From Novosphingobium sp. 28-62-57 (GTDB lineage Bacteria; Pseudomonadota; Alphaproteobacteria; Sphingomonadales; Sphingomonadaceae): a stretch of DNA of 64,000 nucleotides. Of this stretch, positions 1 through 4,555 are shown one piece after another. The notes under the pieces were generated by a model, which worked only from the letters and a program-made list of their open reading frames with translations, was not told the origin of the DNA and ran no database searches. Made by a program: the position numbers and the translations under genes. Positions within the stretch are counted from its first letter, which is position 1. Every line of letters starts with the position of its first letter. Where the stretch lies: the NCBI RefSeq assembly GCF_002256985.1, contig NZ_NCGO01000007.1, positions 80,475 to 144,474 on the forward strand, in the 5' to 3' direction.

Positions 1-93
1 GGCCAGCCACCCATCCCACCCGCGCAAGGCGGCAAGGGCGATCATGGCAAGGCCGGTAAGGCCTGATAATGCTGTGACAAGTTCGGAAGTCAT
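1..93 (-). CDS. Partial (runs off window) small membrane protein, probably a further psp-operon member
   Basis: Hand translation from ATG at 93: MTSELVTALSGLTGLAMIALAALRGWDGWLA..., preceded by AGGGAG RBS. Hydrophobic N-terminus, same strand, directly after the paralogue array. Not in the ORF track. Confidence 0.6.
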   Translation of the reverse strand, partial: MTSELVTALSGLTGLAMIALAALRGWDGWLA

Positions 94-132
94 ATCGGCA
101 ACTCCCTGTTGCTCATGGCTTTGCGATTGGTC

Positions 133-381
133 TTATTTCTCGCGCAGTTGCTCGATCTCGCGCGAGAGGCGGCGGGTTTCGCCATCATCGGTGGCAATAC
201 GTTCCAGCACTTCAAGCCGCTGACGCAATTCTGCCAGTTCGCGTTCGAGGCTGGCGGTATAGGCAGCATCGGCATTCGTGCCATCGTACCCGCCGCTACC
301 GCGGTACTTGTCGCGGTTCATGCGGATGTTGGCAAAAGCGATGATCGCAGCGATGGCGACCATGGCACTCCAGAAAGACAT
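133..381 (-). CDS. Psp-associated single-TM coiled-coil protein (paralogue A)
   Basis: MSFWSAMVAI start at 381 after GGGGAAG RBS. N-terminal TM, then RQRLEVLERIATD...RLSREIEQLR tail shared with PspC and the neighbouring paralogues. Confidence 0.85.
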   Translation of the reverse strand: MSFWSAMVAIAAIIAFANIRMNRDKYRGSGGYDGTNADAAYTASLERELAELRQRLEVLERIATDDGETRRLSREIEQLREK

Positions 382-410
382 GGCGGAAACTTCCCCGGTG
401 TGTTGGCAGT

Positions 411-683
411 TCAATTGATCTTGGCGGTGCGCAACTGTTCAATCCGCAAGGCCAGATCGCTGTTGTTTTCGGTGGCGATGCGTTCCAGCACGCGCACCCG
501 CTGCTCCAGCCGCTCGGCCTGCGCGGCATATTGCGCGGCCTTTTCAGCGGTTTGCTTGGACAATAGTTCCAGCTCTCGTTCCCGGAAGGCAAGGCGGCGT
601 TTGTACATGTCAGACAGAACGCCCATCACCACCGGCACCACCACCAGCATGAAGGCAAGGCCATAGATGAGGTCGTCACTCAC
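411..683 (-). CDS. Psp-associated single-TM coiled-coil protein (paralogue B)
   Basis: N-terminal TM, AEKAAQYAA, RVRVLERIATE...LALRIEQLR; 4-bp overlap with the upstream gene. Confidence 0.85.
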   Translation of the reverse strand: MSDDLIYGLAFMLVVVPVVMGVLSDMYKRRLAFRERELELLSKQTAEKAAQYAAQAERLEQRVRVLERIATENNSDLALRIEQLRTAKIN

Positions 684-985
684 AGCGCGCTCCTACCGTC
701 TTGTCGGCGCAATGCCTCGATCTGGCCTGCCACGTCAAAGCCCCGGTCTGTGACAATGGCCTCGACATTGGCGAGCCGTTGGTGCGTTGCTTCAAGCTGC
801 TGACGCAGAACGGCATTTTCCTCGCGCAAGGCCACCATGGCCTGATCGTCGGCGCGCGGCGTCTTGCCGCCCCATTCATCTTCCAGCGCATAGCCATGAC
901 GCGCGCGGATCCAGTTGTTGATGATCCAGCCAACGGTTGAAATAGCGATGATGGCAAGTACGAAGTCCGGTCCGGCAAAGCTCAC
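680..985 (-). CDS. Psp-associated single-TM coiled-coil protein (paralogue C)
   Basis: TM, WIRARHGY, RLANVEAIVTD...QIEALRR; 4-bp overlaps on both sides. Confidence 0.85.
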   Translation of the reverse strand: MSFAGPDFVLAIIAISTVGWIINNWIRARHGYALEDEWGGKTPRADDQAMVALREENAVLRQQLEATHQRLANVEAIVTDRGFDVAGQIEALRRQDGRSAL

Positions 986-1326
986 TGCGGCCTCCTGTCA
1001 CCATTCTCCATGCGAAGCGCCTCGATCTGCTGGGTCAGACCAAAGCCGCCATCGGTGACGATCCGTTCGACATTGGCGAGGCGATCCTTGACCGATCCCA
1101 ATTCGGCGCGAAGCTGGGCGTTTTCCTGGCTCAACAGCCTGATCCGCTCAATCTCCGCGCTGGAGGTCTTGGGATAGACCGCCTGCCCCCAAGCACCGTC
1201 GAGCGGATATCCGTGGCGGACGCGCAGCCAGGTGGTGATGACCCAGCCTGCTACGCTCGCTATCGTCACAGTTGCGATGAGCGGCGCGAAGCTGGCGATT
1301 TGTCCAAGATTCTCGATGGCCATCAC
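982..1326 (-). CDS. Psp-associated single-TM coiled-coil protein (paralogue D)
   Basis: TM, WLRVRHGY, RLANVERIVTD...QIEALR; 4-bp overlaps on both sides. Confidence 0.85.
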   Translation of the reverse strand: MMAIENLGQIASFAPLIATVTIASVAGWVITTWLRVRHGYPLDGAWGQAVYPKTSSAEIERIRLLSQENAQLRAELGSVKDRLANVERIVTDGGFGLTQQIEALRMENGDRRPQ

Positions 1327-1604
1327 ATCCTCCGATCTTCAAGCGCGACACTATCGCGGCGCAGCGCTTCGATCTGCGAGGCAGTGTCGAAGCCCTTGTC
1401 GGTGACGATGCGTTCGAGCACGCGGACGCGCTCTTCGAGTTCGCGGGTGTGGGCGGCGTATTGGGCGGCCTTTTCGGCGCTCAACTCGGCGGTGGCCTTG
1501 ATTTGCATCTCGGCGATCTTCTGGCGGTGCTTGGTCCAGATCGCGACGATCGGAATGCACAGCGCGATGATCGGGATCAGCGGCCCTATAACGTCGGGTC
1601 CCAT
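1323..1604 (-). CDS. Psp-associated single-TM coiled-coil protein (paralogue E)
   Basis: TM, AEKAAQYAA, RVRVLERIVTD...QIEALRR; GGGGGA RBS upstream. Confidence 0.85.
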   Translation of the reverse strand: MGPDVIGPLIPIIALCIPIVAIWTKHRQKIAEMQIKATAELSAEKAAQYAAHTRELEERVRVLERIVTDKGFDTASQIEALRRDSVALEDRRM

Positions 1605-1630
1605 GATATTCAGTCCCCCTCAGGACAAGT

Positions 1631-1660
1631 TAGGTGCGTCTAGGTGCAGTTAGGTGCAGT
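1631..1660. repeat. 3 x 10-bp tandem repeat
   Basis: TAGGTGCGTC TAGGTGCAGT TAGGTGCAGT directly abutting the pspC stop codon. Confidence 0.85.
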
Positions 1661-2035
1661 TCAGCGCAGCTTCTCGATTTCGGCCGAAAGGCGCGGGTTC
1701 GAGTTGACGTAGAAGCTTTCCACATCGGCCAGACGGCGATCGATATCGCGGAAGCTGGCGCGCACTTCGCGCGCGGTGCGGGCCGGTGATTGGCGCACGC
1801 CCTGCCAGAACTTCTGTTCTTCGCGATCACTGTAGAGATGCGGCGGCTTCTTGGCGGCCAAGAAGCCGAGCACGAAGTAGAGCATGAACGGCCAGCCCAT
1901 CGAGAAGGCCAGGATCAGAAAGCCAAGGCGGATCCACAGGGCATCGACACCGGTGTAATCGGCAATCCCGGCGCAGACGCCCATGAACTTGCCATTGACC
2001 TTGTCACGGTAAAAGCGGGTGCGTGGGCTGCTCAC
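1661..2035 (-). CDS. pspC: Phage shock protein C (envelope stress response membrane protein)
   Basis: FYRDKVNGKFMGVCAGIADY PspC motif, one TM, C-terminal amphipathic helix; follows pspB. Confidence 0.93.
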   Translation of the reverse strand: MSSPRTRFYRDKVNGKFMGVCAGIADYTGVDALWIRLGFLILAFSMGWPFMLYFVLGFLAAKKPPHLYSDREEQKFWQGVRQSPARTAREVRASFRDIDRRLADVESFYVNSNPRLSAEIEKLR

Positions 2036-2340
2036 TTTGCGGTCCTTCCCTGTTCGGCGAACATCCGGTCCAGTTCGCGCAGTTTCTGATTGTCGATCTC
2101 ACGGTCATGCATGATGCGCGCCGGTTTGAAGTCTGGATTGTCGGACGCGACGAGCCGCTCGACCGTATCCATGCGCTCATCCAGCCGCTTGGCGAGCTGG
2201 TAGAGCTCCTCCAGCAGCGCTTCATCGCCGCTGGTCAGGGTGGGCGCGGTCTTCCACTTGGTGATGTAGTGCAGGATCAGCCACGGCAGGCCGACAAACA
2301 GCATGCCGACGACGCCGATGGGAACGAGTACGTCTTCCAT
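2032..2340 (-). CDS. pspB: Phage shock protein B
   Basis: TM with PWLILHY, then L..DE..LLEEL..LAKRLDERMDTVER; lies between pspA and pspC. Confidence 0.92.
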   Translation of the reverse strand: MEDVLVPIGVVGMLFVGLPWLILHYITKWKTAPTLTSGDEALLEELYQLAKRLDERMDTVERLVASDNPDFKPARIMHDREIDNQKLRELDRMFAEQGRTAK

Positions 2341-2343
2341 GGC

Positions 2344-3198
2344 TTAGCCTTCCTTGCCAAGCTGGCGCTTCATCGCTTCCAGCTCTTCGTCAATCTTGTC
2401 CTGCCCGGCCAGCGCGGCAATCTCGTCAGCAAGGCTTGGCTTGGCCGAGCCATCGGCGAGCCCCAACGCATCGGCGCGGCCTTCGGCGTAATCGACGCGG
2501 CGTTCGAGCTGGTCAAAGCGCGCCATCGCCTCGTCCACCCGCTCACTGGCGAGCAGAGTGCGCAGGCGGACGCGGTTTTCGGCGCTTTCGAGGCGAGCGG
2601 CGATGGCGGTCTGGCGGCTGCGGGCTTCGCGCAGGCGGGTCTGCAGCTTTTCAATGTCCAGCTCATAAGCGCGCATCGCATCATCAAGCACGGTGATCTC
2701 GGTGCGAAGCTGGTCGCCCATGTCGGCGGCCTTCTTCTTTTCAACCAGCGCGGCGCGGGCCAGATCCTCGCGGTCCTTTGACAGCGCCAACTGGGCCTTT
2801 TCCGCCCAATCTGCCTGCAGCCGATCCAGCTTTGCCACATGGCGGCCCATTTCCTTCTGATCGGCAATGGTGCGGGCGGCAGACGCGCGGACTTCGACCA
2901 GCGTTTCTTCCATCTCCATGATGATCATGCGGATCATCTTGGCAGGATCATCGGCCTTATCAAGCAAGTCATTGAAATTGGCGGCGATGATATCGCGAGT
3001 CCGCGAAAAAATGCCCATCAGGTTTACTCCGCTGTTGAATTTGGGGGACTTGAAGGAGCCATTGGATGCAGCCCCATCTTGCTGCCTGAATGGCTTGCTA
3101 GCAGAAGCGCGAAGGCGATCCAGTTCCGTGTCAAAGCGCGTGGCGCGGCCACCCTCTTTATCATGCGGCAGGATCGGCGAGAGGTCGCTGGTCATCAT
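2344..3198 (-). CDS. pspA: Phage shock protein A (PspA/IM30, ESCRT-III superfamily); alternative start at 3018
   Basis: MGIFSRTRDII..N.N.LLDKADDPAKMIRMII.EME and ERRVDYAEG motifs. ATG at 3198 overlaps the upstream ORF stop (ATGA); ATG at 3018 has its own GGAG RBS. Confidence 0.95.
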   Translation of the reverse strand: MMTSDLSPILPHDKEGGRATRFDTELDRLRASASKPFRQQDGAASNGSFKSPKFNSGVNLMGIFSRTRDIIAANFNDLLDKADDPAKMIRMIIMEMEETLVEVRASAARTIADQKEMGRHVAKLDRLQADWAEKAQLALSKDREDLARAALVEKKKAADMGDQLRTEITVLDDAMRAYELDIEKLQTRLREARSRQTAIAARLESAENRVRLRTLLASERVDEAMARFDQLERRVDYAEGRADALGLADGSAKPSLADEIAALAGQDKIDEELEAMKRQLGKEG

Positions 3199-3353
3199 GC
3201 AAGCTCACCGGTGATGGCCGCGGTCGAAGCGACAACGGTTGGCACCGAATTCACCTGCTGGCTCAGCGCGAAGCAGCACAGCACCACCATTGCACCAATG
3301 CTGGCAAGGCTGGCGCGTCCGAGCTGGGTGGAAAAGAAGCGGGCGGTGTACAT
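3195..3353 (-). CDS. 52-aa hydrophobic leader protein, first gene of the psp operon
   Basis: MYTARFFSTQLGRASLASIGAMVVLCCFALSQQVNSVPTVVASTAAITGELA*; GAAAGGT RBS 7 nt upstream; TGA overlaps the pspA ATG; below the ORF-track length cutoff. Confidence 0.7.
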   Translation of the reverse strand: MYTARFFSTQLGRASLASIGAMVVLCCFALSQQVNSVPTVVASTAAITGELA

Positions 3354-3407
3354 TCTCGATACCTTTCGGCGGGTTGGGTCGGCGTGCTGCCGGGTTGTTC
3401 ATGACAC

Positions 3408-3423
3408 AGCAAGCAGTGTGCCA
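3408..3423 (-). promoter_or_regulatory. sigma54 (-24/-12) promoter of the psp operon
   Basis: Minus strand reads TGGCAC-ACTGC-TTGCT, an exact match to TGGCAC-N5-TTGC; divergent from the sigma54 activator pspF. Confidence 0.9.
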
Positions 3424-3477
3424 AACTGCGCAAGGCCGGGAATTCCGGCACTTTCATCGAGCACAGCACTTTTCATG

Positions 3478-3514
3478 TTGGGAAATCTTGCGAAGGCTTG
3501 GGAAAATGCGCTAA
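3478..3514. promoter_or_regulatory. Two candidate PspF upstream activator sites
   Basis: TTGGGAAATCTTGCGAA (3478-3494) and TTGGGAAAATGCGCTAA (3498-3514), 20-bp period, between the sigma54 promoter and the pspF start. Confidence 0.55.
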
Positions 3515-3523
3515 TCTTCAGGG

Positions 3524-4555
3524 ATGGATCGTGAAACGCAATTCTTAGGCCAATCGGGCGCGTTCCTTGACGCAGTGGAACGGGCCAGCCGCGCCGCGCC
3601 GATGCGCCGTCCGGTGCTGGTGATCGGGGAGCGCGGGACCGGCAAGGAACTGATCGCCGAACGCCTGCACCGCCTGTCGTCACGCTGGACCGAACCGCTG
3701 GTGACGATGAACTGTGCGGCCCTGCCCGAAACGCTGATCGAGGCCGAATTGTTCGGGCATGAGGCCGGTGCCTTCACCGGTGCCACTCGCGCGCGGACCG
3801 GGCGGTTTGAAGAGGCGGACAAGGGCACGCTGTTCCTTGATGAACTGGGCACGCTGTCCATGGGCGCGCAGGAACGGCTGCTGCGCGCGGTGGAATATGG
3901 CGAAGTAACCCGCATCGGATCGAACAAGCCGGTGCGGGTGGACGTGCGCATCGTGGCGGCCACCAACGAGGACTTGCCGAAGATGGCCGAACAGGGGCGC
4001 TTTCGCGCCGACTTGCTCGACCGGCTGAGCTTTGAAGTGATCACCCTGCCCCCGCTGCGTGTACGCGAAGGGGATGTGGCGGTGCTGGCCGAATACTTCG
4101 GGCGGCGTATGGCGGCGGAACTGCAATGGGACGCCTGGCCCGGCTTTGCGCCATCAGTGCAAAAGGCGATGGAGGACTATCTGTGGCCCGGCAACGTGCG
4201 CGAATTGCGCAATGTGGTGGAACGCGCGGTCTATCGCTGGGATGATGGCACGCAGCCGGTGGGCCATGTGCAGTTCGATCCTTTCGAAAGCCCATGGAAG
4301 CCGGTGGGCATGCCACGGGCCGAAGCAGCGGGCGATGGCGAAGCGGCGGCGCCGGTGCGTGTGGCCGCGCCGACAGCGGATTTGGACGGAGTGAGCGACC
4401 TGCGCGCCGCGGTGGATGCGCATGAGCGCGCGATCATCGAGCATCATCTGGGCCGCAACCGTTACAACCAGCGGCAAACGGCCAAGGCGCTTGGGTTGAC
4501 CTATGACCAGTTGCGCCATTGCATGAAGAAGCATGGGTTGGGGGAGCGGGGGTAA
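3524..4555 (+). CDS. pspF: Phage shock operon transcriptional activator (sigma54 bEBP with no receiver domain)
   Basis: GERGTGKE Walker A, GAFTGA, LFLDE, WPGNVREL, C-terminal HTH LGLTYDQLRH; divergent from pspA. Confidence 0.93.
   Translation: MDRETQFLGQSGAFLDAVERASRAAPMRRPVLVIGERGTGKELIAERLHRLSSRWTEPLVTMNCAALPETLIEAELFGHEAGAFTGATRARTGRFEEADKGTLFLDELGTLSMGAQERLLRAVEYGEVTRIGSNKPVRVDVRIVAATNEDLPKMAEQGRFRADLLDRLSFEVITLPPLRVREGDVAVLAEYFGRRMAAELQWDAWPGFAPSVQKAMEDYLWPGNVRELRNVVERAVYRWDDGTQPVGHVQFDPFESPWKPVGMPRAEAAGDGEAAAPVRVAAPTADLDGVSDLRAAVDAHERAIIEHHLGRNRYNQRQTAKALGLTYDQLRHCMKKHGLGERG

Follow-up and report, generated by a model that had tools for sequence, protein, structure and literature searches.

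Psp signalling is understood almost entirely from Escherichia coli and Yersinia, each of which has one PspB and one PspC. In a stretch of 64,000 nucleotides of Novosphingobium sp. 28-62-57 (RefSeq contig NZ_NCGO01000007.1, positions 80,475 to 144,474; hereafter the window), the genes pspA, pspB and pspC are followed by an array of six further small genes, named here A to F, which are the subject of this work. In both model organisms, the zipper or tail of PspC is the element that binds PspA (PMC3068692; PMC5596341). The leucine zipper of E. coli PspC is needed for the interaction with PspA, and the fragment PspC40-119 binds PspA and induces psp when it is co-expressed with PspB (PMC3068692). 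The first-pass annotation of the window, an earlier reading made from the sequence without database searches, took as its premise that the C-terminal helix of PspC recruits PspA, and the zipper requirement in E. coli supports it. [quoted passage not shown]

The closest described arrangement comes from Erythrobacter, a genus of the same GTDB family as this Novosphingobium. For Erythrobacter litoralis, Ravi et al. 2024 (mSystems, PMC11237479, Table S3) list "PspB duplicates in the operon" in the context of AOL22920.1. The architecture that they give, with a divergent pspF, pspA-pspB-pspC followed by several genes encoding a transmembrane (TM) segment plus a PspB-like part, and a small X gene, matches the one found here. 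The same authors view the PspC tail as a divergent PspB domain. Because this architecture is already catalogued there, it is not the undescribed system that had been supposed from the sequence alone, and our locus is a further case of it. However, the treatment in that work consists of one clause and one table row, in which the types, order, spread and function of the genes are not described. No function for the array is offered in Ravi et al. 2024, in the other papers on Psp evolution that we consulted, or in the literature that we searched on sphingomonad psp.

We consider that the products of the six genes probably act as accessory membrane subunits in the Psp system of sphingomonads, as divergent paralogues of PspB and of the PspC tail. 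The array clearly belongs to the psp locus. In the 20 loci that we compared (19 others from the GTDB family and this one), the order was always pspF and, next to it, pspA-pspB-pspC-(two to seven copies)-F-sufE. Furthermore, a profile search found the genes in 136 of the 151 genomes of the family, mostly as three to seven tandem copies, and 12 of the 15 family genomes without array genes were also without pspA, so that loss of the array mostly coincides with loss of pspA. The first-pass annotation had placed the genes in the psp operon and had proposed to look for copy number and synteny in relatives, and both surveys bear out that placing. The hosts include Novosphingobium, Erythrobacter, Altererythrobacter, Alteraurantiacibacter, Croceibacterium, Qipengyuania, Sphingorhabdus, Parasphingorhabdus, Sphingomicrobium and Sphingomonas. 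No array copy was found elsewhere in this genome. Sister families within the order carry one or two weaker copies, some of them after pspC and others stand-alone, and in the rest of the class, where a bona fide PspB is present in about 29 genomes, a weak array-type match was seen in only 4 of 298 genomes.

In the window, ORF (open reading frame) calling and translation place the psp locus within bases 1-4555, on the minus strand save for pspF, which alone lies on the plus strand. Read along the minus strand, the order is a sigma-54 promoter, a small ORF (X), pspA-pspB-pspC and then the six array genes, of 93, 114, 101, 90, 82 and 70 amino acids. All of these are on the minus strand, and each is assigned to the type of the same letter (see below): gene A (1323-1604); gene B (982-1326), with the juxtamembrane motif W.R.RHGYPL..WG; gene C (680-985); gene D (411-683), akin to A and with the motif AEKAAQYAA; gene E (133-381), whose orthologue consensus begins MSFWTA; and gene F, with its first 31 codons in the window (1-93) and the remainder continuing to -119. 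The full ORF of F was read from the contig, where its stop lies 119 nt beyond the window edge; it is the last gene before sufE, which is followed by a DUF454 gene, and the array therefore has six members. The ORFs and the contig beyond the window thus agree with the earlier description of five complete small genes after pspA-pspB-pspC and a sixth leaving the window.

The A/B, B/C and C/D junctions are 4-bp GTGA overlaps, which chain four genes, as had been noted before with a lettering that ran in the opposite direction. An overlap between D and E was discarded, since it needs a TTG start that the orthologues do not back; E begins at ATG 381 after a spacer of 29 nt. Genes A, E and F have Shine-Dalgarno sequences of their own, after spacers of 56, 29 and 39 nt, respectively; that of A is GAGGGGGA, at 1614-1621. 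Across the family loci, 41 of 105 junctions overlap (by -4 or -1) and almost all of the remainder measure 2-57 nt, and the spacers between pspC and the array are tight (13-56 nt). The pspC-to-A spacer of the window has a peculiarity of its own: its positions 1631-1660 (minus strand) are filled by three tandem 10-bp units, ACTGCACCTA, ACTGCACCTA and GACGCACCTA. These units are confined to the closest Novosphingobium relatives (our loci L055, L056, L058 and L073); in other species the spacer is shorter and the ribosome-binding site GAGGGGGA is unchanged.

Each array protein consists of a short acidic N-terminus, one TM helix, a group of basic residues and a helical tail. The tail is formed by a leucine-zipper-like helix, R-L-x-x-L-E-R-I-V-T, a short break, and a terminal helix, x-I-E-x-L-R, and the same module stands at the C-terminus of PspC (1661-2035, minus strand; 124 amino acids; tail RRLADVESFYVNSNPRLSAEIEKLR), whose gene overlaps pspB by 4 bp and which scores 124 bits with TIGR02978. 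The tail pattern as first written out holds for the five complete genes, save that the two halves are separated in gene E by 10 residues rather than 5-8; gene F has the TM helix and the first tail helix only (MRERLRKLEAIAAGVDL). When the gap was widened to 5-10 residues, exactly the five complete genes matched among the six-frame ORFs of the genome (6.3 million residues), and after loosening the pattern PspC was the only match added genome-wide. A hidden Markov model (HMM) of the tail alone gave a similar picture. It was built over 33 positions from 80 relatives in other genomes, leaving out the copies of this genome, and searched against 58,352 ORFs; the five genes scored E-values from 1e-15 to 2e-10 and the next ORF 0.16, with PspC, PspB and F all among the dozen ORFs that ranked next. 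By both the pattern and the HMM, the tail motif is far better than a random coiled coil, a doubt that the first-pass annotation had itself raised.

To place the array among known families, a profile of 85 array proteins was compared by hhalign with profiles of PspC, PspB and F from the same loci, with reversed-sequence controls. The array matched the PspC tail with a probability of 88.8% (E 2.5e-6, 36 columns; reversed control 16.6%), F with 86.9%, and PspB with 43.9% (E 2.4e-4, 23 columns; reversed control 4.4%); the probability with the N-terminal half of PspC was 0.1%, and reversed controls did not exceed 17% overall. This probability for PspC, together with its place as the sole extra match of the loosened pattern, upholds the earlier statement that the same tail occurs in PspC. 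Among curated models, TIGR02978 gave sub-threshold matches in 46 of 85 copies, located on the C-terminal part of the model in the window copies and in the first member. At E<=0.01, sub-threshold matches to the PspB models PF06667 and TIGR02976 were obtained for 4 and 23 of the 85 proteins; the window copies score 11.9-23.2 bits, below both cut-offs (25.6 and 51.7). In contrast, PspF, PspA, PspB and PspC of the locus each exceed their curated Pfam or NCBIfam cut-offs, pspB (2032-2340, minus strand; 102 amino acids) with 82 bits for PF06667 and 88.7 bits for TIGR02976. Judged by these profiles, the array genes are related to the C-terminal tail of PspC and show a weaker resemblance to PspB. They are best read as ancient, divergent paralogues of the PspB/PspC-tail lineage.

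The likeness to E. coli and Yersinia PspB lies in the size (about 75-110 amino acids), the N-terminal TM segment with N-out/C-in orientation, the cytoplasmic zipper-like helix R-x-x-x-[LV]-E-x-[IL] and the location in the psp operon; the array proteins differ from it by the terminal I-E-x-L-R helix, absent from PspB, and by scores below the cut-offs. Both halves of the tail align with PspC (about positions 74-121 of TIGR02978), and a TM segment plus tail resembles a PspC deprived of its N-terminal domain. However, the TM segments are not alignable, and PF04024, the N-terminal domain of PspC, gave no match in any array copy. The enterobacterial PspD and PspG are comparable by analogy alone, as small inner-membrane proteins presumably co-induced with PspA; both lack the zipper tail and have no sequence similarity to the array. 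In loci of sister families within the order (L043 5711-5950, L049 4980-5276 and L052 6457-6702), pspC precedes a second PspC-domain gene, which has no tail and encodes about 75-95 amino acids, and a single TM-plus-tail gene comes after that. This pair may be a clue to the origin of the array. An origin by simple splitting of a duplicated PspC was rejected, given that the TM-plus-tail gene of the sister families has a TM segment of its own.

The distribution of charges supports the PspB-like topology put forward in the first-pass annotation. In 105 array proteins, the flank preceding the TM helix has a mean of about 5 residues with 0.1 K/R and 0.8 D/E, while the 15 residues after the helix contain 3.1 K/R, and the positive-inside signal is present in 99% of them. 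The array proteins are thus predicted to be single-pass N-out/C-in signal anchors like PspB, a topology that would leave the tail in the cytoplasm. A cleavable signal peptide, as the label "SIG" in Ravi et al. 2024 would imply, was discarded: there is no basic n-region, and the segment is thus read as an uncleaved N-out anchor.

The copies were typed on a tree of 106 proteins and checked by best-hit typing. Four clades were well supported: F (20/20, support 100), B (18 rows, support 100), A (18 rows, support 99) and C (11 rows, support 95); D has its affinity with A, and E is placed close to F. Over the 20 loci, F was present in 20, B in 19, A in 18, E in 17, C in 12 and D in 11, in the usual order A-C-B-D-E-F across genera. 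The six types are therefore old orthologous clades that extend across genera, and a recent tandem amplification was rejected on the same tree. The segment between the TM helix and the tail is type-specific; types B and C have W.R.RHGYPLE..WG there, and types A and D have AEKAAQYA. Genes B and C of the window (680-1326, minus strand) are swapped, giving A-B-C instead of the A-C-B of a congener and most other genera. Another observation concerns the C-terminus of types A and C, which in other genera ends in [DS][SA]G[VI]PL[ND]...KE[KR][AV] (SGVPLN..KEKA), found in 18 proteins against 0.02 expected from shuffles; these include proteins of L024, L027, L031, L034, L036 and L040, and the motif is absent from the copies of this genome.

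Upstream of the operon and divergent from it lies pspF (3524-4555, plus strand), which encodes the sigma-54 enhancer-binding activator (TIGR02974, 478 bits; cut-off 443.55). The sole recognisable promoter of the unit, read from the sequence, is the sigma-54 element TGGCAC-N5-TTGCT (TGGCACactgcTTGCT, 3408-3423, minus strand). The element TGGCAC-N5-TTGC[AT] was found upstream of pspA in 17 of the 20 loci, at 360-490 nt where the pspA start is reliably called. Inside the arrays of the 20 loci it was not found, save for one degenerate match. A promoter scan of window bases 1-3600 gave no sigma-70-like site, and a terminator scan gave no convincing terminator. Given a single conserved sigma-54 promoter, and neither a promoter within the unit nor a convincing terminator, pspABC and the array are likely co-transcribed from a single PspF/sigma-54 promoter.

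If the six proteins are accessory subunits, the array would be transcribed with pspABC from that promoter, with coupled translation, and induction would place several extra PspC-type tails at the membrane. These tails could join the PspB-PspC complex, hold PspA at the membrane, or both, which would strengthen PspF release as well as PspA recruitment. We infer that the tails bind PspA, PspB or PspC and that hetero-oligomers form; docking of PspA by the tails is plausible.

The first-pass annotation had seen in the array a diversified adaptor/sensor bank that could target PspA to different stresses, lipids or partners. In such a bank, every paralogue would respond, by its TM and juxtamembrane part, to a stress, lipid or partner of its own and would recruit PspA independently by the common tail. 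The conserved segment that each type keeps between TM helix and tail would suit this idea, as would the sharing of the tail with PspC. However, one promoter serves all copies and many are translationally coupled, so they would not be deployed separately; the co-inheritance of the types in a fixed order is unlike the usual lineage-by-lineage expansion of sensor banks; and a periplasmic part of only about 5 residues leaves little room for sensing outside the membrane. Because six old types are inherited together in a fixed order, behind one recognisable promoter and in many cases coupled, co-produced subunits fit better than alternative adaptors; a bank of alternative sensors is the less likely of the two, and we consider it unlikely. 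The same proteins might act in the opposite sense, as negative-feedback dampers. Their tails would bind that of PspC, or compete with it for PspA with no release of PspF, such that the induced array switches the response off. The PspB-like topology, the weak similarity to PspB and the silencing contacts between PspB and PspC (Flores-Kim & Darwin 2016, as cited in PMC5596341) speak for such a role, but the tails are nearer to the tail of PspC, which binds PspA, than to PspB, and we do not think that damping is likely. A further possibility is that the proteins are effectors independent of PspA, small and induced, which stabilise the inner membrane by their own presence, as PspD and PspG may do in enterobacteria. 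The occurrence of small membrane proteins in a psp operon, and of stand-alone relatives outside psp loci in sister families, would be in line with this. Nevertheless, a model search gave no PspD or PspG match among the array genes, and their conserved part is the cytoplasmic protein-interaction tail and not the membrane part; this explanation is very unlikely. Finally, the array could be an independent unit that is only a neighbour of psp, perhaps working with sufE, and without a role in the Psp response. The constant position of sufE after F is in line with this, but the loss of the array mostly together with pspA, the homology to the PspC tail, and the tight spacers to pspC with no promoter found make such an arrangement extremely improbable.

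Several points weigh against the accessory subunits that we favour. None of the 85 array copies reaches a curated PspB or PspC cut-off, and the match to PspB spans just 23 columns. The single-chain AlphaFold2 (AF2) model of gene A is one featureless long helix (predicted local distance difference test score 80.6) and adds little. Since the cytoplasmic domain of PspB silences PspC in Yersinia, PspB-like proteins could equally damp the response. In the literature, we found nothing relevant on psp expression in sphingomonads. In addition, stand-alone relatives away from psp genes occur in sister families (L044, L045, L047, L048, L050, L051, L053 and L054), and the fold is therefore not tied to Psp by necessity. 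The consensus of these stand-alone relatives is MNPFEMVV...LEERIRVLERIATDK..LA.EID.L.

A related motif was found at the N-terminus of PspA. The canonical pspA extends over 2344-3018 (minus strand; ATG at 3018, 224 amino acids; TIGR02977, 277 bits), and a long form starts at ATG 3198 and adds 60 amino acids. This extension (3019-3198, minus strand) is in frame and stop-free and carries the helix RFDTELDRLR. In 16 of the 20 family loci an extension motif SRLDxEVERLRxSPT is in frame, set in low-complexity linkers of variable length, and the extension mostly closes in G-[AV]-P-[LFW] just before Met1, a sequence echoed by the C-terminal motif of types A and C. In Novosphingobium it starts at a conserved MM(A/T)DEL(S/T)PIR. 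The entropy of the motif codons across genomes is 9.6, 6.9 and 19.7 at positions 1, 2 and 3; as they vary mainly at third positions, the extension is translated. By hhalign, the profile of the extension aligns with the 11 C-terminal residues of PspC at a probability of 86.8% and with the array tails at 61% (reversed controls <=15%), and the AF2 model of the long PspA has an isolated helix at 21-33 flanked by disordered stretches. The fusion of a tail-like motif to PspA gives indirect, fusion-type support for a functional link of the tails with PspA.

The terminal helix, [ST]-R-[LF]-[DE]-x-E-[VIL]-[ED]-x-L-R, ends PspC, recurs in the array tails and is joined by a disordered linker to the PspA N-terminus. 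It might be a reusable docking peptide, whose copy in PspA would take up a site in cis or in the polymer, as self-inhibition, and the induced membrane copies would compete for that site; we regard this as unlikely. If true, it would allow a graded, multi-adaptor pull of an ESCRT-III-like protein to the membrane. To our knowledge, such a mechanism of competition between docking peptides has not been described for any Psp system. A reading of the helix as an ESCRT-III MIM1 motif was rejected, as the key residues misalign and no Vps4-like partner is known here. Upstream of the long form is ORF X (3195-3353, minus strand), of 52 amino acids with one hydrophobic segment, whose stop overlaps the start of the long pspA (ATGA). 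Similar ORFs of 52-63 amino acids (M.D/T.RFF..LG.A...SIAAM...) were found at the equivalent place in 5/5 other loci that could be examined there, and "X->PspA" is shown in Table S3 of Ravi et al. 2024 (PMC11237479).

Throughout a bacterial family, three to eight additional PspB/PspC-tail proteins are retained in fixed order, and in most members PspA also bears the motif-containing N-terminal extension. If the tails bind PspA, the array would offer a natural system in which to study what number of membrane anchors is required by an ESCRT-III-like protein and in what ways the PspB/PspC switch can be elaborated. These genes are annotated as "hypothetical" and are covered by no curated model; with a model for the family, several genes could be named in most genomes of sphingomonads.

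With respect to earlier records of these genes, the orthologue of gene A is Saro_1159, which belongs to the array of N. aromaticivorans DSM 12444. Saro_1160 and Saro_1163 were listed as Sphingomonadales-specific hypothetical proteins (Gupta & Mok 2007), and judging from their numbering beside Saro_1159 they are probably array members. Outside the window, the sufE-like gene is located at contig positions 79755-80177 (minus strand), 177 nt past gene F. In the family loci sufE follows F in 20/20 cases, 7 of which have about 24 nt between the two genes, and it has the same position in one sister-family locus (L046); sufE may be part of the array transcript.

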